A stretch of DNA of 64,000 nucleotides from an uncultured Candidatus Saccharibacteria bacterium (GTDB taxonomy: Bacteria; Patescibacteriota; Minisyncoccia; Phycocordibacterales; UBA2100): assembly GCA_964512835.1 (NCBI GenBank), contig CAZELA010000003.1:152098-216097 (forward strand). Direction: 5' to 3'. Both the position numbers and the translations under genes were made by a program. Shown here in pieces: positions 45,058-62,180 of this stretch. Numbering within the stretch: the stretch's first letter is position 1; every line of letters begins with the position of its first letter. The notes beneath the pieces were generated by a model that was not told where the DNA came from, made no database searches, and saw nothing but the letters and a program-made list of their open reading frames with translations.

Positions 45058-45200
45058 TCAGAAAGGGGACCGCGGTCAGAGCGCGGTCCTTTTCTATATA
45101 TTGAAAGCGGCATCCTTTGCTTTTTGGGGTGAATTCGCCTATATTACGGGAACTTGGCTCCGCCACCGGCGGATTCTTTTTTAGAAAAATTACTTGTTAT

Positions 45201-47342
45201 ATGTCACGAGATTACCCATTGGAAAAAGTTCGAAACTTCGGAATCGTCGCACACGTCGATGCGGGCAAAACGACCACATCCGAGCGCATCCTCTACTACA
45301 CCGGGGAGAGCCACAAGATCGGCGAAGTGCACGACGGCAACACGGTTACCGACTGGATGGAACAGGAGCGAGAACGCGGCATCACGATCACCGCGGCGGC
45401 GATCACCTGCTTCTGGAACCCGTCGTACATGGGAACCGATCTCTCGCAGAAAGTTCGGTTCAACGTCATCGACACGCCGGGACACATCGACTTCACCTCT
45501 GAAGTAAAGCGATCCATGCGCGTACTCGACGGTGCCGTCGTCGTTTTCGACGGCGTTGCAGGCGTTGAGCCGCAGTCGGAAACCAACTGGCGTTACGCAG
45601 AAGAGGCCGAGGTGCCCCGTATCTGCTACATCAACAAGCTCGACCGAACCGGTGCGTCGTTTGAAAAGTCATACGCGTCCATCCTCGATCGTCTCTCCAC
45701 CAAAGCAGTCCGTCTCCAGATTCCGGTCGGAGCAGAAGCCGACTTCGAAGCCGTCATCGATGTGCTCGAAATGAAAATGTTCAAGTTCGAAGGCGAAATG
45801 GGTAAGAATGTTTCCGCTCACGAGATCCCGGAGGCGTACATGGCAGATGCCAAGAAGTACCACGACGAGATCGTTGAGCGCATCGTCGAGACCGACGACG
45901 TGCTCATGAACGACTTCCTCGAGGGCAAGGTGCCGGAGCTCTCTGTTTTGAAGGCAACGCTTCGCAAGGCGGTGATCGCCAACAAGATCTTCCCGGTGCT
46001 CACCGGCTCGTCACTCAAGAACAAGGGTGTGCAGCGCGTGCTCGATGCGGTCGTCGACTACCTCCCGTCTCCGCTCGATCTTCCGCAGGCTCAGGGAACC
46101 AATCCTGACACCGGCGCCGAAGAAACCCGTCCTGCTGACGACAGCGCACCGTTTGCTGCGCTTGTCTTCAAGCTTCAGACCGACCCGTTCGTGGGTAACC
46201 TCGCGTTCTTCCGTGTTTACTCGGGTTCGATCTCTGCCGGTGACACTGTCTACAATTCCGCAAACAACAAGAAAGAGCGCTTGGGCCGCATCGTGCGCCT
46301 CCAGGCAGACAAGCGCGAAGAAGTAAAAACCGTCTTCGCCGGCGAAATCGCCGCGGCCGTCGGTCTCAAGGAGATTAAGATCGGTAACACGCTCTGCACC
46401 TCGGACAACCCGATCATTCTCGAATCGATCGTGTTCCCGGAACCGGTCGTATCGATGCGAATCGAACCGGACACTAAGGCAGACCAGGAAAAGATGGGTA
46501 TCGCGCTCTCGAAGCTCTCCGACGAAGACCCGACCTTCCGCGTGAAGTCGGACCCGGAGACGATGGAAACAATCATCTCGGGCATGGGCGAATTGCACCT
46601 CGACATCATCGTCGATCGTATGAAGCGCGAATTTGCAGTAAACGCAAAGACCGGCAAGCCGCAGGTCGCGTACCGCGAAACGATCCAGGGAACATCGGAC
46701 GTGGAATACAAGCACATCAAGCAGACGGGCGGCCGCGGTCAGTACGGTCACGTAAAGATCAAAATGGCGCCGCTTGCTCCGCTCGAAGAGGGTGCAAAGA
46801 TCAAGAACAATGTCGATCGCGAAGACCACTTCGAATTCATCAACAACATCAAGGGAGGTGTTATTCCGCAGGAATACATTCCGGCTGTGAAGAAGGGTCT
46901 CAAAGAAGGCCTGGATCGCGGCGTGCTCGCGGGCTTCCCGGTTGTCGATGTGTCAGTCGACCTCTACGACGGCAGCTACCACGATGTCGACTCATCCGAA
47001 ATCGCGTTCAAGCTCGCAGCGCTCAACGCATTCCAGGAGGCGTGCCAGAAGGCAAAGCCGGTCATCCTCGAGCCGATCATGAAGCTCGAAGTCGTTGTCC
47101 CGGAAAAGTTCATGGGCGACGTAACCGGTATGATCAACTCGAAGCGCGGTTCCATCGAAGCGATGGGCGAGCGCGGTCAGGCGAAGGTCATCACCTCGAA
47201 AGTGCCTCTCTCGGAACTCTTCGGATTCACGACGCAGCTTCGCTCCCTTACGGAAGGCCGCGGTGTGCCGAACCTCGAGTTCTCGCACTACTCCGTCGTG
47301 CCGCGAAATGTGCAGGACGAGATCATCGCATCCCGAAAGTAA
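45201..47342 (+). CDS. fusA: elongation factor G
   Basis: GTPase G1 AHVDAGKTT and full EF-G domain organisation; start refined to MSRDYP. Confidence 0.95.
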   Translation: MSRDYPLEKVRNFGIVAHVDAGKTTTSERILYYTGESHKIGEVHDGNTVTDWMEQERERGITITAAAITCFWNPSYMGTDLSQKVRFNVIDTPGHIDFTSEVKRSMRVLDGAVVVFDGVAGVEPQSETNWRYAEEAEVPRICYINKLDRTGASFEKSYASILDRLSTKAVRLQIPVGAEADFEAVIDVLEMKMFKFEGEMGKNVSAHEIPEAYMADAKKYHDEIVERIVETDDVLMNDFLEGKVPELSVLKATLRKAVIANKIFPVLTGSSLKNKGVQRVLDAVVDYLPSPLDLPQAQGTNPDTGAEETRPADDSAPFAALVFKLQTDPFVGNLAFFRVYSGSISAGDTVYNSANNKKERLGRIVRLQADKREEVKTVFAGEIAAAVGLKEIKIGNTLCTSDNPIILESIVFPEPVVSMRIEPDTKADQEKMGIALSKLSDEDPTFRVKSDPETMETIISGMGELHLDIIVDRMKREFAVNAKTGKPQVAYRETIQGTSDVEYKHIKQTGGRGQYGHVKIKMAPLAPLEEGAKIKNNVDREDHFEFINNIKGGVIPQEYIPAVKKGLKEGLDRGVLAGFPVVDVSVDLYDGSYHDVDSSEIAFKLAALNAFQEACQKAKPVILEPIMKLEVVVPEKFMGDVTGMINSKRGSIEAMGERGQAKVITSKVPLSELFGFTTQLRSLTEGRGVPNLEFSHYSVVPRNVQDEIIASRK

Positions 47343-51439: not shown

Positions 51440-54073
51440 ATGCATCATCACTCAAAACGGGAGCGATACACGGCATGGATCGCGCGGGCCATCATTGCCA
51501 CGTCGATCTTTGTAACGATGCTCTACGTGTTCGACGGCAAGCTCGATCTGTTCACGAGCGCGCCAAATCCGGAATTTGCCGATGCCACACCGTCGGGCAT
51601 GTTGGTTGTACCCGCCTCCGGCGCGAGTCAGAGCTCATATACGGGCAGCTACACGGCTACGTACACGGGCACCTACACGGGCTCGTATGTGCCGCCCACA
51701 CCGACAGGCCTTACGCTCACCTGCGATGCCGCTGGTACCACGGGCACGATCGCGTGGACGAGCGCACCGGGAGCAACCAGCTACTTGGTGCGCGCCGACG
51801 ACGGAGCTTCGCCGTGGACGCCGTCGCGCTGCGACGGTACCGTGAACGACACGGGTGCGGGCGACTACTGCTGGCCGGCTGCCGCAACAAATCCAAAAAC
51901 ATTTACCACACAGGCCGGGCACAGCTACACGGTGTGGGTGCACTCGAACAATGCTGCCGGATACAACACGACTCCGGCACAGGGAACACTCACCTGCTCG
52001 GCAATGCCGTCGTGCACCGTGAACATCTCGCCGAATCCGCTTGCACGCGGCGGCAGCGCAACAGTCACGTGGTCTTCGCAGAACGCATCGAGCATGACGC
52101 TTGCAACCATCGGGCCGGTGGCGACGGCCGGCTCTTCGAGCGTGTCTCCGACGGTTACTACCAGTTACGGCGGCACGGTGTCCAACACCACTCAAAACAT
52201 TTCATACGGGGCTAATGTTCGTGTCGTGCTTGGCTCAGGATCATCATGGTCAGTTCCTGCGGACTGGAACAACTCGAACAACGTGATCGAGTGCATCGGC
52301 GGCGGTGCAGGCGGCAGCCGTGGTGCAGCAGGCGGAGGCGGCGCGTACTCGCGAGCCACCAATGCTGTGCTTCCGATGGGCCGCACTGTTGCGTACAACA
52401 TCGGCACAGCGGGTGTCGGATGGGGTTACGGAGGTCCGACGAACGGCGGCGCAACGTACTTTGGTGCATATTACTGCTACGCGCAGGGTGGTTACGTGGG
52501 CGGCGATCTCTCGTTGACGGGTGGCACAGGCGGACAGTCGTCCGGATATGGCAATGTGAATTATGTCGGCGGAAACGGCGGCGGCGCATCAAACGTCTGG
52601 GACGGTATCCGCACATTCAACGGCGGTGGCGGCGGTGGTGCAGGAGGACCGAACGGTAACGGCTACAGCGGTGCATCCGGTGTCGCGGCGAGCGTCGGCG
52701 GTAATGGCGGATACGGTGGTGCCGGTTACGGTGGCGGTGGCGGTGGCGGCGGAGGATTTACCTACTACTGGGCTTACACATACGGTGGCACCGGCGGAAC
52801 CGCGTATAACGGTGCTGAATGGTCGTCTGCCGGATCCGGCGGCGGAGGCGGCGGAGGTGGTGGCGGTTACTACGGCGGCGCAGGCGGTCACGGCGGCTAC
52901 TACGGCGGTGGTGGAGGCGGTGGCGCGCAGGGCTATGCAGTCGACGGCTACGGAGGCTACGGCCGACAGGGTGTTGTGGTAATCACGTACCAGCCGATCA
53001 TCTACACTCCGCAAAACAATACGGCTACATGCCCCGCAACACTTACGGTACAAACTCCGACTGCCGCACTCACACTTGCGGGCGGTGTCTCATCACAAAC
53101 GGTGAACGTGGGTCAGCAGTCGACCTGGACGTGGTCGTCAACATTCGGCAATACCTACACAACAATCGTGACGCTTGATCAGGCCGATGCGTGCGGTAAC
53201 GGCGTTGGACCCATCACATGGCCGTACGGTACGAGCGCGAGCGGCAACTACACTGCGACGTGGCAGGCCTGCACCGCAGGACGCACGTACAACTATAGTT
53301 ATCGCGTCACGAATTCTGCGGGCTACATTGCAACCGCACCGACCGCGTCGGTCACCGTTCGACCGCTCCCGTCGTGCACGCTCACACCGACCCCGGCAAC
53401 CATCGTTCGCGGTGGTAGTGCTGCACTCGCCTGGACCTCGGCAAACAGCACATCAGGCTCGATTGCGCCGGGAGGCACGAACATGTCGCCGCTTGCAAGC
53501 GGACAGGTATCTGTTGCCCCGACCGTTACGACCACGTACACAGGATCGGTGACGGGTGCAGGTGGTGCAGGCAGCTGCCAGACCACGGTGAACGTAACGT
53601 GTGCACCGATCTATCAGTGCTCCGGCCAGCAGATCACGTATACCGACAGTAACTGCAATACAACGAACCTCAATGGCGGCGTTGCCTGCGCAGCACCGTC
53701 GTACTGCCAGGCAGGTCAGGCGGTCTGTATAAACCCGCCGCCGTCATTCACTGCCGGCACCACTGCAGGCGGCACGCCGACCACCGGTGACTTGGAAGCG
53801 AATCCGCAGCTCGTGCGAAAGGGAACATCGGCAAAGCTGTACTGGAACGTATCGAATGTGGCGAGCTGCACCGTAACGGGTAACAACGGCGAAACGCTGG
53901 CTTCGGGCTGCACCGGCTCGGTCTGCACCTCGGGTAGCGCAGGTCGCACGACTGCGGCGATCAACTCGAGCGTGATTTACTCGCTCCGCTGCAATGCGCT
54001 CTCGGGCGTGACGCCGTCGTCGTTCAATCACACGGTAACGGTGCTGCCGTCGCCGGAATACGAAGAGAAATAA
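51440..54073 (+). CDS. giant secreted glycine-rich protein (877 aa)
   Basis: Signal anchor, Ig/fibronectin-like Thr/Ser-rich domains, and a ~300-aa central region of GGxGG/GYGG repeats ending GYGRQGVVVITYQP; alternative-frame ORFs across it are high-GC artefacts. Confidence 0.55.
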   Translation: MHHHSKRERYTAWIARAIIATSIFVTMLYVFDGKLDLFTSAPNPEFADATPSGMLVVPASGASQSSYTGSYTATYTGTYTGSYVPPTPTGLTLTCDAAGTTGTIAWTSAPGATSYLVRADDGASPWTPSRCDGTVNDTGAGDYCWPAAATNPKTFTTQAGHSYTVWVHSNNAAGYNTTPAQGTLTCSAMPSCTVNISPNPLARGGSATVTWSSQNASSMTLATIGPVATAGSSSVSPTVTTSYGGTVSNTTQNISYGANVRVVLGSGSSWSVPADWNNSNNVIECIGGGAGGSRGAAGGGGAYSRATNAVLPMGRTVAYNIGTAGVGWGYGGPTNGGATYFGAYYCYAQGGYVGGDLSLTGGTGGQSSGYGNVNYVGGNGGGASNVWDGIRTFNGGGGGGAGGPNGNGYSGASGVAASVGGNGGYGGAGYGGGGGGGGGFTYYWAYTYGGTGGTAYNGAEWSSAGSGGGGGGGGGGYYGGAGGHGGYYGGGGGGGAQGYAVDGYGGYGRQGVVVITYQPIIYTPQNNTATCPATLTVQTPTAALTLAGGVSSQTVNVGQQSTWTWSSTFGNTYTTIVTLDQADACGNGVGPITWPYGTSASGNYTATWQACTAGRTYNYSYRVTNSAGYIATAPTASVTVRPLPSCTLTPTPATIVRGGSAALAWTSANSTSGSIAPGGTNMSPLASGQVSVAPTVTTTYTGSVTGAGGAGSCQTTVNVTCAPIYQCSGQQITYTDSNCNTTNLNGGVACAAPSYCQAGQAVCINPPPSFTAGTTAGGTPTTGDLEANPQLVRKGTSAKLYWNVSNVASCTVTGNNGETLASGCTGSVCTSGSAGRTTAAINSSVIYSLRCNALSGVTPSSFNHTVTVLPSPEYEEK

Positions 54074-54321
54074 TCCCCAGACTATCCACAAAAAGCGCCT
54101 CAAACAGGCGCTTTTTGCGTATTTGACCAGACACCTCGTTCTGTTATTATCACTGCACGCACGCTCTGTGCGTATTTCTTTGCCCCACTATTTGCGTGCG
54201 GATTAGCGACCCGCGTGACGCGCAGTAGGGGAAGGTAGGGAAACACCGGAGCACTCAAAAGCGTTGGCACATGGTTCGCCTAAAAAACGAGCCGATTATT
54301 ATTTAGCTGTATAAAAATAAT

Positions 54322-55521
<1,200 letters not shown>

Positions 55522-55555
55522 TCCAAGCCAACTCGGTTTCTCTCCAGAAACCAAA

Positions 55556-55586
55556 GAAAACCCCGGCCCAAAGCCGGGGTTTTCTA
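55556..55586. terminator. bidirectional terminator shared by tuf and the reverse transcriptase gene
   Basis: AAAACCCCGGCC-CAAA-GCCGGGGTTTTCT. Confidence 0.7.
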
Positions 55587-57041
55587 GTTGTTCTTAAATG
55601 CTACTTTGCGCGATTTACCGCGAATCTTCTCTCTGAGTTTTCGGGCATTTTTTACCGTTTTTATCTGCTCTTTAACCTCTGGGGCACTCAATTTTGACGC
55701 AACCACTCGTGAGTAGGCTAGGAAATTTTTCTTAGCGACACCGTACTTTGTATGTAAGTACTTTTTCGGCGCACCACTGCGCTTTTTCCTTGCAGCATTC
55801 TTCACTGATTTCTTCACCGCCTTATTCATCCTTCTCTGAAACTTCGCAATTGCGGCGTGACGTAGATAAACCTTCTGCCCGTCGGTCTGGATGCCAAGGT
55901 ATTGAACCGTTGCCTTCTTCATTGTTTCGGGATTTAGAATAGCCAAGCGCTCTTCAGTTCCGATGCAGTCGCGTCTTTCTGTTTTTTCCTTTTTTATAAC
56001 CAAAGCCTGCTCCTTTATCGCCTCGTATACGAAGTTCACAATTTGTGCAGCGTTCTGCGGCGAACACACAATCAGGATGTCGTCCGAGTATCGCCGATAG
56101 AGTCCATTTATCTTTCTCACGGCGGTTGCTACGGCGGCATCAAAGTCGAGCATGTACATGTTGGCCAATACACAACTAATAGGCGACCCCTGAGGAATTC
56201 CTTTGCTTTCCTTGTGAATCTCCTGTAAATGCTTTGAAATCACTTCGCGTTTGTATTCGGGGGCTGTAAATATTCGTGACCGACGTTTTTTCATGGCCTC
56301 ATCGGCGAACTTACGAATTCGTCCTTTTCGGACAAATGTAAAATTTGTGACCGCTCTAAAAACCTTGTAGTGGTCTTCAGGTAGTCGTTCATACCCCATT
56401 ATCTGACTCCATTTTGATTTAAGTTTACTGTGATCAATCTCCTCGAAGAATTTTGAGACATCTATCGCCAGAACACTACACGGTGCGTGAGCATCAATGA
56501 ACGCGAAAACTTCTCCTGCGAAATCAGCGTTACTTTTTCCTCTACCCGTCACAGGGCTCTTGATGCTTCTGTAAGCAATGACAGCATCACTCAGGTTCAT
56601 TTCGGAAAGTATCTTTTCGTAGCGTTCTGAAAGTTGCGCCGCGTACCATGAAAACACAAGCGCATCCTTGTGCGACGAAAAATCAATGGGTCTCTTTTTT
56701 ACAAAAATCTCACGTTTGCGCGCACCGGACTTCCTATTTTTTGGACGTCTGTAGCGACGGTCTCGTGTATCGATACGAATAAACGGGTAGAAGGAGTGAC
56801 GGGATACCGAATCCGGTGACAACATAGATTTCGTAATGTCTTCCTTCAGTCGAGATATCCGACTATCAAAATGCAAATATGTCCGCTTCGGTGGACGGTC
56901 TTGCCCGTCCCCGTTTAGTTTTTTTGATTCATTTACAAACCAACTGCTCCACCGGTCATTTTCCATATTCAAAGTAGACCCAACACCCCCTGGGTTCCTG
57001 GTACCTCGGGTTTTATCCCGTTGGCAGGGGTGTGGGCGCAA
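55584..57041 (-). CDS. free-standing reverse transcriptase (RNA-directed DNA polymerase), unclassified family
   Basis: RT motifs: LAIDVSKFFEEIDH (motif 2), GIPQGSPISCVLANMYM (motif 4, QGxxxSP), YRRYSDDILIVC (motif 5, YxDD), QYLGIQTDG (motif 7); highly basic C-terminal tail; start codon uncertain (first Met of the ORF given). Confidence 0.85.
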   Translation of the reverse strand: MRPHPCQRDKTRGTRNPGGVGSTLNMENDRWSSWFVNESKKLNGDGQDRPPKRTYLHFDSRISRLKEDITKSMLSPDSVSRHSFYPFIRIDTRDRRYRRPKNRKSGARKREIFVKKRPIDFSSHKDALVFSWYAAQLSERYEKILSEMNLSDAVIAYRSIKSPVTGRGKSNADFAGEVFAFIDAHAPCSVLAIDVSKFFEEIDHSKLKSKWSQIMGYERLPEDHYKVFRAVTNFTFVRKGRIRKFADEAMKKRRSRIFTAPEYKREVISKHLQEIHKESKGIPQGSPISCVLANMYMLDFDAAVATAVRKINGLYRRYSDDILIVCSPQNAAQIVNFVYEAIKEQALVIKKEKTERRDCIGTEERLAILNPETMKKATVQYLGIQTDGQKVYLRHAAIAKFQRRMNKAVKKSVKNAARKKRSGAPKKYLHTKYGVAKKNFLAYSRVVASKLSAPEVKEQIKTVKNARKLREKIRGKSRKVAFKNN

Positions 57042-57738
57042 ATCCGCGAGCGACTTTTTGGGGTCGGTACCGTCAGTGACGGCCAGGACTTAATTACCAT
57101 CAAGTTATCATTAACATTATGAACATGACTGAGTACATCATCGCGATTGCGGTGAATGCATGTGGCCTGCTCCTAATGATGCTAGGTGCCAGTTCCTGTG
57201 AATTGACATCAAGTAACTTAGTTCCCCATAGCCTATGCCATGGGGGCTCGCGGTATTAGCGTATTAACGCCAGAGGTATTCTACGCCTACCTGACAACGG
57301 GTCAATCAATCGTTGATACGCGCAATCGAGCACTCAGCACATTTCGTGTCGTTATCGTCGATGTTCCCGACAATGTTGCCGCCCGACTGCTGCATGTGCT
57401 TGAGACACAAGGCAACCCGGTGCCCGTTAGTTTCGACTATGTACTTTGCAGGATACATGACGGCCATAGAGTGCATTATATAGGGAATTGGGGTCAGTCC
57501 CCACATATCTCGTCGTTGCTACGACTCGCAAGCAGGGCCCGTCTCGCTATCCCATGCGCCGTCGCGCACGGGCCCCAAGCTCCGATCGAGTTTTGTCTTG
57601 TATCGAGCAGTGTTCGCTACAAGCGGAAAACTCCTCCAGAAACGAGAAACGTGTGGTGAAAACAAAAACCCCGGCATCGCTGCTGGGGTTTGACGGACCA
57701 AATGCAAATTGGCACTGTGTGCGTGGGAGGATACCAGC
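57042..57738 (-). ncRNA. candidate structured non-coding region upstream of the RT
   Basis: ~700 bp with no convincing CDS; AT-rich promoter-like stretch at 57100-57240; contains copy A of a 200-bp structured element (57488-57690) with hairpins GGGGTCAGTCCCC and GGGCCCGT...ACGGGCCC. Confidence 0.3.
57488..57690. repeat. 200-bp repeat element, copy A
   Basis: ~90% identical to 59537-59740; ends in the CTCCTCCAGAAACGAGAAACGTGTGG + GAAAACAAAAACCCCGG...CCGGGG module. Confidence 0.8.
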
Positions 57739-58125
57739 ATGACAAGAGCTCGGTACGAAAAGCCCACGTTCTCACATGTTTTTCTCGATAGCGACACGAT
57801 CACGGTTCGAAATAAGCTCGGCGTTGCGATAACGTTTTCGATCCAAACCGATATCCCGATCGAACGACACGATCAGATGCTCCGGAGTGTCCTCGTCGAC
57901 GGGTGGGGGAAAATGCAGCTCGTACTCCATGAGCCGTACTCTGCCCACGATGTTGCGCACGAACCTGCGAACCGGCGCGACAACGTTGTCGACGGAGGCT
58001 ACGACGCCAAGCTTATCAAGCAGTGGTTTGGTATCGAGTGGCACGAGTTCCAGTTGATGTACAACCATGCTCGGTTACAGATAGTCACTGCAATCGAAGA
58101 GCGCCTCAGTGCGCTCACAAAGTAA
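57739..58125 (+). CDS. hypothetical protein
   Basis: GGGAGG RBS, 128 aa, followed by a repeat-module terminator. Confidence 0.45.
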   Translation: MTRARYEKPTFSHVFLDSDTITVRNKLGVAITFSIQTDIPIERHDQMLRSVLVDGWGKMQLVLHEPYSAHDVAHEPANRRDNVVDGGYDAKLIKQWFGIEWHEFQLMYNHARLQIVTAIEERLSALTK

Positions 58126-58250
58126 AACTCCGGTCGTTAGGCCGGAGTTTTCTGCTTAGACCGAATCAATCCCTCCCGAAACGAGAAGCGTGTGGCCTGC
58201 CTGCGCAGGCAGGTGAAAACAAAAACCCCGGGCGTGCTAGGATTTTTGCA

Positions 58251-58553
58251 ATGAGGTGTCCTACGTTCTTGCGCGTACTAGCGGGTTTTGTCCTGAGTGG
58301 ATGCATCCTATACGTCTTTGTAGGCACGACTTCGGCCTTGGAAAGGGTCGGTCAAATTTTAGGGGGTGCAATACTGGTGCCGCTAGTGTTAATGCTTGCT
58401 ATGGGTATGACGTTTAGCTTTGCTAGACTATTGGACCGCCAGAACATCGGCACAATTGCAGCCGACTTTAAGTATTCGTTAGCGATATGGATTTTAGGCT
58501 TTGCTATATATGTACCCATCACTCTGTGGTTAGTAAGTATCTATGGCGAATAG
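58251..58553 (+). CDS. small membrane protein
   Basis: Three TM helices; start overlaps the end of a repeat module. Confidence 0.4.
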   Translation: MRCPTFLRVLAGFVLSGCILYVFVGTTSALERVGQILGGAILVPLVLMLAMGMTFSFARLLDRQNIGTIAADFKYSLAIWILGFAIYVPITLWLVSIYGE

Positions 58554-58839
58554 CGACATGCGTAATGGATGGTTCTGGATCCAGCGAACAACGATGTTTG
58601 TGGTTGCCACGGGTGCAAACCTTTCAACTTTGTTCATAGGCTTCGACCAGCCATGGCTGAATTTACCAGTGGTTGCACTGCTGTCGTATGCTTCGGGGCG
58701 AATGTTTCATCGCAAAACAGGTACTGCCTGGCGTACCGACTTGGTGTGGGCCGTTGGTTTAAGTTTTGTGGGACCCATCGCTCTCATTTTGGTGATGGCG
58801 GAAACCTACGGATGGGTGGAAATGTTCGGACTAGTTTGA
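58543..58839 (+). CDS. small membrane protein
   Basis: Start overlaps the previous gene stop (translational coupling); TM helices; ends at the repeat module at 58845. Confidence 0.4.
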   Translation: MANSDMRNGWFWIQRTTMFVVATGANLSTLFIGFDQPWLNLPVVALLSYASGRMFHRKTGTAWRTDLVWAVGLSFVGPIALILVMAETYGWVEMFGLV

Positions 58840-58844
58840 GGAAT

Positions 58845-58940
58845 TCACTCCTCCAGAAACGAGAAGCGTGTGGCTTGCCTCCTGCATGCGCAGGCAGATG
58901 AAAACAAAAACCCCGGCGCGATGGCCGGGGCTTTAAAATA
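58845..58940. repeat. repeat module / bidirectional terminator
   Basis: CTCCTCCAGAAACGAGAAGCGTGTGG + palindromic CCTGCATGCGCAGG + GAAAACAAAAACCCCGGCGCGATGGCCGGGG. Confidence 0.7.
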
Positions 58941-59514
58941 TCCGCTTTCGATAGACTGCCGCAATAAGCATTACGTTGACGACGAGTAGATATATTTGGA
59001 AGCTTGAATTCTCAATACTCCACACATGCATAGAGGGGAGCACTAGAAGCACGCTTACGAGCGAGGTTACATAAGTAAACCCTGTCTCGGTCTCTGGGAA
59101 CTTCCACGCCTTTACGATGGTGGGGAGTGCTGCAAAGAAGTCTCCGAGCGCCGCAAGAAGTATGGCGTATGTCGGGATGCCGACCACAAGCCAGAGAATG
59201 AGCGCGAGTATCGAGAATCCGCCGCAGGTGATATCAAAGGATGTCGCTTTCCAGAAACTCTTTCGATTCCAGAATGATGCAATAAATACGAGGAGTGGCA
59301 GGAATCCTGCGAGGAAGGTACGAATTGTTACCCACACATCAGCTCCTGCAGTGAGTGCTGCACCTGTACCAATGAGCGGTGCGAGTGCCCACAGTCCCCA
59401 AGAAATCCGATTGGGTTGAGTCGTGCCGCGAATGGTGTCCCGTACGTACGCGTATCCACCGATACAGCTTATGAGCGCGCTCAGTATCACCAGCCAGTGC
59501 TCAAAGCTCAGCAT
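58933..59514 (-). CDS. polytopic membrane protein
   Basis: Six predicted TM helices; start refined to MLSFEHW because the track N-terminus runs into repeat copy B. Confidence 0.5.
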   Translation of the reverse strand: MLSFEHWLVILSALISCIGGYAYVRDTIRGTTQPNRISWGLWALAPLIGTGAALTAGADVWVTIRTFLAGFLPLLVFIASFWNRKSFWKATSFDITCGGFSILALILWLVVGIPTYAILLAALGDFFAALPTIVKAWKFPETETGFTYVTSLVSVLLVLPSMHVWSIENSSFQIYLLVVNVMLIAAVYRKRIF

Positions 59515-59536
59515 GGTCAGATAGTAGCACTGGGGG

Positions 59537-59740
59537 ATGGGGTCAGTCCCCACATGGCTCGTCACTACTGCGACTCGCACGCAGGGCCCGTCTCGCTATC
59601 CCAAACGCCGTCGCATTTGGGCCCCAAGCTCCGACCGAGTTTTGTCTTGTATCGAGCAGTGCGCGCTACAAGCGGAAAACTCCTCCAGAGACGGAAAACG
59701 TGTGGTGAAAACAAAAACCCCGGTCGATTGGCCGGGGTCC
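59537..59740. repeat. 200-bp repeat element, copy B
   Basis: See copy A; the differences are not adenine-specific. Confidence 0.8.
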
Positions 59741-59757
59741 TGCTTTTGCGCAGGATG

Positions 59758-60279
59758 TTATGCGAGGAGCAGGGGGAAGTCTGAGACGCGTTTGTACACG
59801 CCTCTCCGCCATCGCGCAATGCTCTGGATGATTCCGTATAGCTCGATGAAGGTTTTCACCGCATCCTGCAGGCGAATCGCCACGAAGTCATCCGGTGCGC
59901 CACTGTTCGCTGGATTCATGAGAATCAGGTACTCCTCGTCGACGACGAGTCGCGAGAACACGGCGATCCGGTAGGAATTTGATACAGCGAGCGATTCCCA
60001 TCGTGGATTGTCCGGATTCACAATCTGCATCGCGGGGCCGACACCCATGAGTTTCGCGTACGCATCACGAAGTGATTCGCCGCGCTCTGGGGTCGGGATG
60101 AAAAAATACACGTGACCGCACAGCAGTTCGGTCGTGGCCGACAGCTTGTTGATTTCGTCCCACGGCGCCGTTGCGTTTGGGAAGCCTGTCATATCGTAAA
60201 GACCCCACCCCGTGCGCTTCACCGCGGAGCAGATTTCACCGCCATCCGGTAACACTGTTTCCTGAGCCAGTCGCAACAT
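59758..60279 (-). CDS. hypothetical protein
   Basis: GGAGGA RBS before MLRLAQ; repeat-module terminator downstream. Confidence 0.4.
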   Translation of the reverse strand: MLRLAQETVLPDGGEICSAVKRTGWGLYDMTGFPNATAPWDEINKLSATTELLCGHVYFFIPTPERGESLRDAYAKLMGVGPAMQIVNPDNPRWESLAVSNSYRIAVFSRLVVDEEYLILMNPANSGAPDDFVAIRLQDAVKTFIELYGIIQSIARWRRGVYKRVSDFPLLLA

Positions 60280-60317
60280 TCTGTCCTCCAAGGCGTTGTT
60301 CCCGCCAGCACCCTACA

Positions 60318-60410
60318 CCAAAATCCAGAGACGGAAAACGTGTTGCCTGCCTCCTGCATGCGCAGGCATGGCGCATTCAGAACCCCCCCCCGTCGATTGT
60401 TCGAGGGTTG
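60318..60410. repeat. repeat module (degenerate copy)
   Basis: CCAGAGACGGAAAACGTGTTGCCTGCCTCCTGCATGCGCAGGCA followed by a C-rich tract. Confidence 0.6.
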
Positions 60411-60466
60411 CACAAATCTTCAGTTCCCGTTAGGGTGACGCTCGGTTGCAACAGGGAGGACTCGAA

Positions 60467-60952
60467 ATGCTTACGATCAATCCGGTCAGGGATCGAGACG
60501 AGGCGCTCCGCCGCATCGAATCGCTCGACAATGCCCTCATAGGCTGCGGGCACGTGTGCGCGTGTCGCGCGCGGATGGCGCTCGTGATCACCGCCGAACA
60601 CATGACGCGGGTCGAGGCCGTGGTCGCAGAAGTGCGGTCCGGCACGTCCGCAGGCGGCATAGAAGCGCTCCGCGAGATCATCGGCGCCGATATCAATGAG
60701 GTGCAGGCCGAAGTGGCGCTGCGCATCGAGAACACGATGCAGCATCCCGACTACGTGCGCACCAAGAAGGGCGGGGGCATGGCCGCCGCCGAGCGCTCGC
60801 TCTCCGAGATGCTCGAGCAAGAACTCGACCCCACCGGGTATGCAGAGCGCCGGACGGAGCGACTGATGCACGCCATACTCAGCGGTGATCACTCGGCTCT
60901 GCCCGCGGGAATGCATGTCATTCAAATCGGCGGTCGAGGACCCCTGAACTAG
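60467..60952 (+). CDS. hypothetical protein
   Basis: GGGAGGA RBS; strong terminator hairpin at 60963-61000. Confidence 0.4.
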   Translation: MLTINPVRDRDEALRRIESLDNALIGCGHVCACRARMALVITAEHMTRVEAVVAEVRSGTSAGGIEALREIIGADINEVQAEVALRIENTMQHPDYVRTKKGGGMAAAERSLSEMLEQELDPTGYAERRTERLMHAILSGDHSALPAGMHVIQIGGRGPLN

Positions 60953-61052
60953 ATCGTTTCCAAGACGGCCACGCAGAGCACTGCGTGGCCGCATTGTTTT
61001 ACATAAAAACTCCGCCGGAACGGCCGGGACTTTGCCTTGCTACACTGGTGGC

Positions 61053-62114: not shown

Positions 62115-62180
62115 ATCCTCCGGAAACGCACAACGTGTGGTGCAAGCAAAACCCCGCCGAGGACGGCGGGGCATAACGTT
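62113..62180. repeat. repeat module / bidirectional terminator
   Basis: CCTCCGGAAACGCACAACGTGTGGTGCAAGCAAAACCCCGCCGAGGACGGCGGGG. Confidence 0.6.

Follow-up and report, generated by a model that had tools for sequence, protein, structure and literature searches.

Organization of the locus

As seen in Table 1, a low-GC cassette of 1.75 kb (55555-57305) lies within the window, the whole stretch of 64,000 nt that was analysed. A gene for a stand-alone reverse transcriptase (RT) and an upstream non-coding RNA (ncRNA) on the same strand make up this cassette. At one end, the RT gene faces tuf (54322-55521, plus strand) across an intrinsic terminator with a G+C-rich stem of 13-14 bp and T runs on each strand. 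The stop codon of the RT (55584-55586) falls inside this terminator, in agreement with the sequence-only reading, which had placed the stop directly against the tuf terminator. At the other end, the low-GC island starts at the sense promoter, which is the only sigma-70-like site in 55400-57800 (match 10/12) and whose -10 box is invariant (TAnnAT) in nine related loci. An AT-rich stretch had been regarded as promoter-like; it does hold a -10 box, which is one half of a split promoter that reads on the other strand, and the sense promoter lies elsewhere, at 57305-57278.

Table 1. Features of the DRT2 locus, with positions in the window
Feature	Position	Strand	Remarks
Bidirectional intrinsic terminator, common to tuf (+) and RT gene (-)	55555..55585	.	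stem and T runs
drt2 gene, DRT2 (UG2) RT, 460 aa	55584..56966	-	start ATG 56966; YSDD
DRT2 ncRNA, about 305 nt	56967..57271	-	both ends inferred; conserved in nine loci
Long hairpin H8, 'tower'-like	56978..57037	-	around H9 and H10; covariation, fold
Pseudoknot 3' strand, CCAGGA	56996..57001	-	loop of inner hairpin H10
Long-range helix H2, 3' strand	57040..57050	-	covariation
Hairpin H6, 'buttress'-like	57070..57082	-	covariation, fold
Pseudoknot 5' strand, UCCUGG	57083..57088	-	6 pairs, 100% paired
Jump motif 2, invariant GU	57096..57097	-	ACA-2 counterpart
Predicted cDNA repeat unit (proto-neo), 120 nt = 40 codons	57098..57217	+	opposite ncRNA strand; HQVIINIMNMTEYIIAIAVNACGLLLMMLGASSCELTSSN
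Split promoter -10, TATCAT	57106..57111	+	8 nt from unit 5' end; 9/9 loci
In-frame ATG of neo frame	57119..57121	+	second in-frame ATG at 57125
Split promoter -35, TTGACA	57203..57208	+	9 nt from unit 3' end; 9/9 loci
Jump motif 1, GUU, last templated bases	57215..57217	-	invariant in nine loci; ACA-1 counterpart
Hairpin H3, '5' handle'-like	57224..57245	-	10 bp, 8 with compensatory changes
Long-range helix H2, 5' strand	57247..57257	-	pairs with 57040-57050
Sense promoter of ncRNA and RT	57278..57305	-	-35 TTGACC 57305-57300; 16-nt spacer; -10 TAGAAT 57283-57278

The EF-Tu of the window is Kaiserbacteria-like, with 99% identity to that of a relative (P0126), and the host is a CPR bacterium. 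The locus had been placed at an insertion point right after the str operon. This placement calls for correction, with tuf about 7 kb from fusA (45117-47342) and three large ORFs between the two genes. A Pfam search of the neighbouring ORFs gave no domain match, and no conserved accessory gene common to the homologous loci was found. The locus has an identical copy in a second sample (RT relative P0123, 100% over 4.9 kb), which is the same genome and brings neither comparative information nor an empty site.

About 700 bp upstream of the RT had been described as free of any convincing CDS and as carrying a 200-bp element with conserved hairpins. A structured ncRNA is indeed present, although the functional RNA covers only about 305 nt (about 57271-56967). 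Further upstream, an orphan ORF of 56 aa (57306-57476, minus strand) has a coding-like GC3, and its sole homolog is a 98% identical entry. The supposed element is a direct repeat of 186 nt in two copies (57489-57674 and 59538-59723, 90% identical), the second about 2 kb away before an unrelated gene. The repeat was rejected as the ncRNA on account of that second copy and of its being missing from all homologous loci. Since it is absent upstream of the homologous RTs, it is not part of the system.

Identity of the reverse transcriptase

The RT consists of 460 aa with a catalytic YSDD and a long, basic, alpha-helical thumb. A longer product of 485 aa (55584..57041, minus strand) had been proposed. 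That frame is open, but its start is over-extended: the ATG at 56966 is backed by eight homologs and by the family HMMs, and the 75 nt between 57041 and 56967 belong to the conserved 3' domain of the ncRNA. The NCBI gene call is truncated, at 413 aa. Among the motifs listed earlier, YSDD and the basic C-terminal tail were found again, and the tail aligns to the elongated thumb in solved DRT2 structures; motif 4 reads QGSPIS and not literally QGxxxSP.

An RVT_1 domain was detected in the ORF (Pfam, E=3.5e-16). The Drt2 models of PADLOC matched the RT with E=4.6e-127 (423 bits) and 1.2e-104, whereas the second-best PADLOC model, UG17, reached 85 bits and the retron, Abi and group II models scored lower still. 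The NCBIfam Drt2 equivalog (NF041746) gave 392.1 bits, only 2 bits over its cut-off of 390. DRT2 structures (PDB 9c0i/9lje) align to residues 22-442, and one close homolog is annotated as Drt2 by NCBI. On these profile and structure matches, the RT is a DRT2 (UG2) enzyme, one of the stand-alone types that the sequence-only reading had listed as options.

Generic RT motifs are common to group II intron, retron, DGR and Abi enzymes, and weak matches to models of these types were also obtained. The scores are far below the cut-offs: 69.8 bits vs 300 for the group II maturase (TIGR04416), 58 vs 235 for retron St85, 27 vs 450 for Ec67 and 15.5 vs 250 for AbiA. In addition, no intron RNA was matched by an Rfam scan of 54000-61000, and the position of the RT stop codon inside the terminator also speaks against an intron. 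A TR/VR repeat pair was not found in the window, where the only repeat of at least 60 nt is the unrelated 186-nt pair. The earlier dismissal of an intron ORF and of a DGR was thus sound. Retron, Abi, G2L and group II identities were excluded by the profile scores; at this level the reading as a group II, retron, DGR or Abi enzyme is already refuted, and the probability left to it is negligible.

A conserved ncRNA between promoter and RT gene

The comparison covered nine loci, namely the window and eight related metagenomic loci; a scan of genome contigs returned only distant proteobacterial DRT2 loci. Although the RTs of the nine loci are only 48-50% identical, about 330 nt upstream can be aligned across them, and non-coding conservation extends for about 305 nt up to the RT ATG. 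Because the nine loci share ancestry, counts of 9/9 given here are not independent trials.

Covariation argues for a folded RNA. In the proposed structure, 89.5% of cells are paired, compared with 35-46% in slid controls, and 37 pairs carry compensatory changes, compared with 7-15; shuffles performed as well in 0/500 cases. The single-sequence fold gave z=-3.85, and a covariance model (CM) of the scaffold found exactly one copy in the window. Helix H2 has 11 pairs, of which 8 are changed on both sides. The pseudoknot shows one compensatory change, from C-G to U-A in locus L006. H7 and H9 form in 9/9 loci, with H9 built from differing sequences. The distance from the end of H3 to the end of the template is exactly 6 nt in 9/9 loci, and no indels occur between H3 and jump motif 1. 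A conserved basal stem (SL2) at the template was not found in the nine loci, where duplexes of the template flanks are weak and non-conserved (-2 to -6.6 kcal/mol).

In Rfam, the whole region and the 381 nt taken alone gave only terminator-like or snoRNA noise. A degenerate 24-mer of the scaffold matched only one previously collected locus in metagenomes, and viral contigs gave no match to this 24-mer, to the RT protein or to a 29-mer of the repeat junction described below. It can be seen that the expectation of a structured upstream RNA was borne out. The core idea of a stand-alone defence RT with an adjacent cognate ncRNA as its template also stands, with two corrections: the ncRNA is not the 200-bp repeat, and part of it had been assigned to the ORF.

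A predicted repeat unit with a stop-free frame and a split promoter

The neo mechanism of DRT2 was described in Klebsiella pneumoniae (KpnDRT2; Tang et al. 2024, bioRxiv 10.1101/2024.05.08.593200; Wilkinson et al. 2024, PMC12039810). The DRT2 tree of Tang et al. has 2,116 members. In the nine loci, the predicted template is bounded by two jump motifs, the second of which is GUA in the window and GUU in 6/9 loci and lies 8-10 nt upstream of the pseudoknot strand. From GU to GU, every one of the nine loci measures exactly 120 or 123 nt. All nine predicted cDNA units end in ...AAC, and an in-frame AAC or TAC codon directly precedes the unit at every locus. The microhomology between the jump motifs of the window is only 2 nt (AC), or 3/4 nt (TAAC vs TTAC). 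An 8-nt direct repeat, CATCAAGT, was also observed at both template ends, 109 nt apart, in the window only. It was rejected as the jump site, being unique to the window and giving an out-of-frame unit of 109 nt that would lack a promoter, the spacer between the boxes being 6 nt.

When the unit is circularised and read as the reverse complement, exactly one frame is free of stops in 9/9 loci and the other frames hold 1-7 stops. For a single locus, frame 0 would be free of stops by chance with a probability of 5-20%. Codon position 3 is the least conserved within the unit, and an in-frame ATG is present in 9/9 loci. The predicted junction of the 120-bp head-to-tail repeats reads ...TTGACATCAAGTAAC followed by CATCAAGTTATCAT...; its k-mer GACATCAAGTAACCATCAAGTTATCATT does not occur in the genome, and the junction 29-mer was not found in the window. 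The two promoter boxes lie 9 and 8 nt from opposite unit ends, so that a promoter with 17-nt spacing arises only across the repeat junction. This junction promoter scores 10-12/12 in 9/9 loci, and that of the window (TTGACA-17-TATCAT) scores 11/12.

Neo is the predicted translation product of the stop-free frame, and its chemistry was judged from hydropathy only. The predicted repeat is very hydrophobic, with a GRAVY of about 1.0 and a 19-residue stretch of KD 2.2. The -10 box ends 7 nt before the neo ATG and no Shine-Dalgarno sequence is present; translation would therefore be leaderless or would start from a downstream repeat.

An antisense ORF of 46 aa (57119..57259, plus strand) runs from ATG to stop in the linear sequence and encodes a hydrophobic helix. 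It might be an ordinary small hydrophobic protein or toxin, expressed from the chromosome independently of the RT. The linear DNA speaks against this: no plus-strand promoter was found in 55400-57800, and along the linear sequence the -10 box comes before the -35 box. Moreover, the ORF lies wholly within covarying RNA, and conservation ends exactly at the predicted junction. Beyond this junction the neo frame stops after 13 codons in the linear genome of the window, and the tails of the other loci vary from 0 codons upward, L008 having an immediate stop. An ordinary gene of this kind is most unlikely.

A further possibility is that a DRT2-family RT and its ncRNA make a cDNA, either repetitive or single-copy, which acts as nucleic acid in the manner of DRT9, DRT10 or retron-like products, the stop-free frame being incidental. 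Neo has been reported to be harder to annotate in divergent clades, where other mechanisms are possible (bioRxiv 10.1101/2024.05.08.593200), and the jump motif and scaffold sequence are unlike those of KpnDRT2. Such a reading needs a coincidence of a 3n unit, a stop-free frame, a 17-nt split promoter and an ATG, each in 9/9 loci, together with relaxed third positions, and only a small probability is given to it.

The locus could also be a decayed, inactive DRT2 remnant retained by chance in a reduced genome. The low-GC foreign island without a recombinase (none was found on it), the NCBI gene call cut to 413 aa, the weaker GUA at jump motif 2 and the unusual 8-nt repeat would fit with decay. 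Against this, the RT has an unbroken frame along the whole of KpnDRT2 and retains YSDD. The helices are all preserved, as are the stop-free frame and both promoters (10/12 for the sense promoter, 11/12 for the junction promoter), and an identical copy exists in a second sample. Decay is considered very unlikely. The locus is instead, with high probability, a complete and apparently intact DRT2 anti-phage system with neo logic on a single cassette, as judged from sequence.

Proposed mechanism

One promoter (57305-57278, minus strand) would drive the ncRNA of about 305 nt and then the RT gene. By analogy with KpnDRT2, the RT would bind the ncRNA at its 5' hairpin and its pseudoknotted 3' scaffold and reverse-transcribe the 120-nt template from RNA position 57217 down to 57098. 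At the GUU just past the 5' hairpin, the nascent ...AAC-3' end may re-anneal to GU(U/A) 120 nt downstream. Repeated jumps of this kind would amount to rolling-circle reverse transcription and yield copies joined head to tail. After second-strand synthesis, TTGACA and TATCAT would stand 17 bp apart at every junction of this concatemer. The RNA from the junction promoters, antisense to the ncRNA, would contain the stop-less frame of 40 codons (neo), whose translation into a repetitive, very hydrophobic polypeptide would arrest the infected cell. All hallmarks of the published DRT2/neo mechanism that can be read from sequence are present, whereas cDNA synthesis, the phage trigger, second-strand synthesis, the toxicity of Neo and defence itself are steps we infer by analogy. 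An RT-based system not yet described, as had been suggested, is not supported.

Comparison with known systems

Like KpnDRT2, the window has a single RT gene and a same-strand upstream ncRNA (about 280-305 nt) under one promoter; the RT aligns with KpnDRT2 over its full length (E about 1e-64). In both, the central template of about 120 nt sits between a 5' hairpin and a 3' scaffold with a pseudoknot, and a short motif is repeated at both template ends. The unit spans exactly 40 codons, its stop-free ORF runs antisense to the ncRNA, and boxes of TTGACA/TATAAT type are out of order, forming a 17-bp-spaced promoter only across junctions.

Several differences are also apparent. The clade of the window uses GUU/GU(U/A) as its jump motif, in contrast to ACA/ACA; in a Pseudomonas locus given the same analysis, the unit ends in TGT, the complement of ACA. 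SL2 was not detected; the window has instead a long-range helix, H2, around the 5' hairpin, the template and two scaffold hairpins. Also different are the promoter boxes, which lie 9 and 8 nt from the ends of the unit, the lack of a Shine-Dalgarno sequence with an ATG 7 nt after the -10, and the host, a CPR bacterium. Since the predicted Neo repeat is much more hydrophobic than the KpnDRT2 type, a soluble alpha-solenoid, the Neo of the window may be membrane-active. These CPR loci might even form a mechanistic variant, with a GUU jump without SL2, a template end fixed 6 nt from the 5' hairpin, leaderless or downstream-repeat translation and a poly-transmembrane, membrane-disrupting Neo, but this view is tentative and rather doubtful.

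In Pseudomonas and Photobacterium, the Rfam family RT-12 (RF03016) has matches directly before annotated drt2 genes; it covers the scaffold only, without the template. The element order is alike: pseudoknot 5' strand, hairpin, hairpin, and a long hairpin with an inner loop of 7 nt that forms the 3' strand of the pseudoknot. The RT-12 consensus pseudoknot is GCGGC/GCCGC, and that of the window has the same topology. The RNA of the window differs in having an extra inner hairpin, H9, and an H2 strand before the long hairpin. The window gave no match to RT-12, not even when 381 nt were scanned at E<=10, and the CPR-clade loci gave none either, compared with 73-81 bits in the positive controls L011 and L024.

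DRT9 and DRT10 produce ncRNA-templated homopolymer or tandem-repeat DNA (PMC12483538, PMC12632851). The repeats are short or homopolymeric and non-coding. As at the present locus, these are UG-class defence RTs with an adjacent ncRNA that leads to repetitive DNA. The RT of the window scores only 66 bits with Drt9, compared with 423 for Drt2, and the SLATT partner needed by DRT10 is absent from the locus. Retrons are similar in combining a stand-alone RT and an adjacent structured template RNA in defence; however, retron RT models give 48-58 bits, far under their cut-offs, the window locus has no effector gene, and its template logic is concatemeric and coding.

Implications for DRT2 and CPR bacteria

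The system was correctly flagged from the sequence, and its mechanism is already explained by the DRT2 work of 2024. The neo logic, that is, a 3n unit, a stop-free frame and a junction-split promoter, is kept at about one-third RT identity, and can be recognized by sequence alone. The nine-locus alignment is an independent comparative data set. According to this comparison, unit length, promoter geometry and pseudoknot topology are essential, whereas the jump motif (ACA vs GUU), the predicted chemistry of Neo and probably SL2 are clade-specific. The only Rfam model of DRT2 scaffolds fails to detect the ncRNA of this clade, and standard gene calling is blind to the RNA and to neo and leaves the RT truncated or over-extended.

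CPR bacteria (Patescibacteria) have tiny genomes and few recognised defences. If the mechanistic variant proposed above were true, an ultra-small episymbiont would gain an abortive-infection defence for only 1.75 kb.

Family and host of the reverse transcriptase

The sequence-only reading had left the class of the reverse transcriptase (RT) to profile HMMs, and these assign it to Drt2. Two PADLOC Drt2 models give 423 bits (E=4.6e-127) and 349 bits (E=1.2e-104), with the next family, UG17, at 85 bits, and the NCBIfam Drt2 equivalog, at 392.1 bits, is just over its cut-off of 390. The NCBIfam models for group II maturase (69.8 bits, cut-off 300), retron St85 (58 bits, cut-off 235) and AbiA (15.5 bits, cut-off 250) fall far short. 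Residues 22-442 align at E about 1e-64 with DRT2 proteins of known structure (9lje and 9c0i), and the long basic C-terminal region flagged from sequence lies inside this alignment. The corresponding region of KpnDRT2, the DRT2 of K. pneumoniae, is an elongated thumb holding the ncRNA (PMC12039810). Database search returned one identical entry, then eight relatives at 48-50% identity, all metagenomic (one annotated 'antiviral reverse transcriptase Drt2 [Candidatus Paceibacterota]'), followed by a gradation of matches, none above 40% identity. The EF-Tu of the window is 88-91% identical to that of Candidatus Kaiserbacteria, Pacebacteria and Minisyncoccia; therefore, the host is a CPR bacterium, as had been guessed.

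Parts of the original description of the RT interval hold: the open frame of 485 codons, the tuf neighbor and the stop codon at a terminator. The frame contains an RVT_1 domain (Pfam E=3.5e-16) and lies in an island of about 45% G+C (55.55-57.3 kb, against 58-62% on either side). The boundaries needed correction, as the longest ORF runs too far, into the ncRNA. The RT start differs between gene callers, with 413 aa from M73 in database entry P0001 and 462 aa in P0123, which comes from the same genome as the window and is called from a TTG lying two codons 5' of the ATG. In the five closest loci, the RT starts at the ATG aligned with window 56966 (MENDRWSS...), and the sequence just 5' of it is conserved at the nucleotide but not the protein level. 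The family alignment thus supports a predicted RT of 460 aa.

Structured ncRNA upstream of the RT

An nhmmer profile built from the upstream region of the first loci found the same element in three additional loci, none of which had been used in building it. In the resulting alignment of nine sequences (the window and eight related metagenomic loci), the -10 box is invariant, about 305 nt are conserved, and the RT ATG follows immediately. The only sigma-70-like promoter within 55400-57800 is TTGACC-16-TAGAAT.

Covariation was assessed with RNAalifold and a hand-completed structure including a pseudoknot, with partners slid by 1-3 columns as controls. Paired cells amounted to 89.5% (35-46% in controls), 37 pairs carried compensatory changes (7-15 in controls), and the observed covariation was matched by none of 500 shuffles. 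Hairpins H7 and H9, misaligned by MAFFT, fold in all nine loci from differing sequences, and the window RNA by itself folds with z=-3.85. The structured RNA suspected upstream of the RT is thereby confirmed. From 5' to 3', it consists of a small hairpin (H1), the 5' strand of a long-range helix (H2), hairpin H3, the template with H4 and H5, the pseudoknot strand UCCUGG, hairpins H6 and H7, the H2 3' strand and the long hairpin H8. H8 encloses H9 and a 3-bp hairpin, and the 7-nt loop of the latter, ACCAGGA, closes the pseudoknot with UCCUGG.

Predicted neo unit and junction promoter

The KpnDRT2 enzyme copies a 120-nt template over and over, jumping between two ACA motifs; RNA from the double-stranded concatemer, antisense to the ncRNA, bears a stop-less ORF (neo), and a promoter arises across the repeat junction (bioRxiv 10.1101/2024.05.08.593200; PMC12039810). 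Two invariant motifs are present in our alignment: GUU, six nucleotides past H3, and GU(U/A), 8-10 nt ahead of the pseudoknot strand. Their spacing (120, 123, 123, 120, 120, 123, 120, 123 and 123 nt) is divisible by three at every one of the nine loci. When the reverse complement of the motif-to-motif unit was circularised and read in three frames, frame 0 contained zero stops in 9/9 loci and the remaining frames 1-7 each; under mononucleotide shuffling, the chance of an open frame 0 was 5-20% per locus. A promoter with a 17-nt spacer, scoring 10-12 of 12 (TTGACA/TATCAT in the window), is present only across the repeat junction, and the linear sequence within 55400-57800 has none on the strand opposite the ncRNA. 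Every unit contains an in-frame ATG. The predicted window repeat encodes HQVIINIMNMTEYIIAIAVNACGLLLMMLGASSCELTSSN.

In the linear genome, eight of the nine loci have a stop in the neo frame 0-13 codons beyond the predicted junction. The exception, L001, has none over at least 28 codons, the rest of the segment analysed. These linear tails are unrelated among loci. An AAC or TAC codon, in the neo frame, immediately precedes the unit, and conservation within the unit is lowest at third codon positions (0.47 vs 0.55 and 0.585).

An 8-nt direct repeat, CATCAAGT, also lies at both ends of the window template, and occurs in no homolog. It was rejected as a template-jump site, as it would yield an out-of-frame unit without a promoter.

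Limits and surroundings of the cassette

The "200-bp element" first taken as part of the RT system proved to be a 186-nt direct repeat, missing upstream of every homologous RT, and is therefore host sequence outside the cassette. Both copies start right after a terminator hairpin, the second just upstream of a membrane-protein ORF, and they form nested hairpins with compensatory differences from one copy to the other (e.g. CCCGTGCGC..GCGCATGGG vs CCCAAATGC..GCGTTTGGG). The repeat has no Rfam match and is a candidate for an undescribed RNA, cis-regulatory or small, in this CPR lineage. In the orphan 56-aa ORF, G+C across the three codon positions (0.48/0.34/0.67) is host-like and coding-like, and the product shows CxxH...CxxC spacing. 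The ORF ends in a stop codon directly against the DRT2 promoter's -35 box; its sole database relative is a 66-aa NCBI entry, 98% identical. With the repeat outside and this ORF host-like, the foreign cassette thus spans 55555-57305.

A single strand of a 4.5-kb stretch holds 4-6 occurrences of a short cassette, GGGGTTTTTGTTTTCA + CCACACGYTTCTCGTTTCKGGAGG, where chance would give none. A terminator tail leading into a conserved 5' leader or ribosome-binding region is a possible reading.

The window cassette carries no recombinase and has none nearby. Homologous cassettes adjoin a tRNA, tyrosine integrases, a serine recombinase, type I restriction-modification genes or a Vsr + Dcm pair, which are mobile or defence-island contexts. 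About 7 kb separates fusA from tuf, so the str operon is interrupted in this genome. In between lie an ORF with a peptidoglycan-binding domain, one of 801 aa and one for a Gly/Thr/Ser-rich repeat protein of 916 aa; Pfam matches neither of the latter two.

Positions of features (window coordinates unless a locus is named)
Feature	Position	Strand	Remark
fusA	45117-47342		
tuf	54322-55521		
Bidirectional terminator	55555-55585		RT stop codon inside
Longest RT ORF	55584-57041	-	
Predicted repeat unit	57098-57217	+	120 nt
CATCAAGT repeat	57098-57105, 57207-57214	+	109 nt apart
neo ATG	57119		
ncRNA promoter	57305-57278	-	
Orphan 56-aa ORF	57306-57476	-	MHSMAVMYPAKY...CAECSIARIND; between 186-nt repeat and DRT2 promoter
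186-nt direct repeat	57489-57674, 59538-59723	minus-strand sense	90% identical
GGGGTTTTTGTTTTCA + CCACACGYTTCTCGTTTCKGGAGG	57633-57672, 58172-58229, 58850-58914, 59682-59721, 60322-60345, 62117-62140	all minus	
Membrane-protein ORF	58933-59512		
Neighbors of homologous cassettes	L009 1793-1877; L001 2684-3577; L004 163-1251; L009 3802-5136; L008 2330-4126		
40%-identity clade	L021 2884-3022 and upstream; L022 795-933		Predicted unit and weak scaffold match
LOOT RNA (RF03000)	L021 4993-5113	-	

Comparison with described DRT2 systems

Applied to drt2 loci of Pseudomonas and Photobacterium, the same neo scan yielded units of 108 and 111 nt. In L021 and L022, two loci of a clade with RTs about 40% identical, it predicted a stop-free unit of 147 nt (49 codons), showing AACAT microhomology and a promoter across the junction. 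Therefore, the scan recovers neo-like units in drt2-annotated loci. The scaffold covariance model made here finds one copy in the window, a weak match at the expected place in the 40%-identity clade (E=0.28) and none in RT-12-type loci. The L021/L022 unit and this weak match suggest a wider GUU/AUGUU-type DRT2 group. L021 also carries a confident Rfam LOOT RNA (70.9 bits) about 600 nt downstream of its DRT2 gene.

Rfam RT-12 has matches directly 5' of the drt2 genes of Pseudomonas and Photobacterium, and shares its element order with the window scaffold, including the pseudoknot of a 5' strand with the inner loop of a long hairpin; its model matches neither the window RNA nor any CPR-clade locus. 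The jump motif is GUU in the window clade and ACA in KpnDRT2, and because the second motif of the window is GUA, the window has just 2 nt of microhomology. In the window-clade loci, no SL2-type stem conserved next to the template was found. The window Neo repeat is strongly hydrophobic (GRAVY 0.99; best 19-residue window 2.17), whereas KpnDRT2 Neo is described as a soluble alpha-solenoid. The junction -10 box ends 7 nt ahead of the neo ATG, with no Shine-Dalgarno sequence. Judged from these loci, the departures are clade-level, modest variations on one mechanism. The DRT2 authors report neo 'across diverse clades', with divergent clades harder to annotate (bioRxiv 10.1101/2024.05.08.593200); the portion of their 2,116-protein tables covered contains no CPR names.

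By analogy with two 2024 DRT2 studies, the RT would bind the ncRNA and carry out self-primed, rolling-circle reverse transcription; second-strand synthesis would follow upon infection, the concatemer would be transcribed and then translated without a stop codon, and growth arrest would be the outcome. The initial reading of an RT plus cognate ncRNA as a putative defence module was right: at the sequence level, the window system is a DRT2 bearing all hallmarks of neo synthesis.
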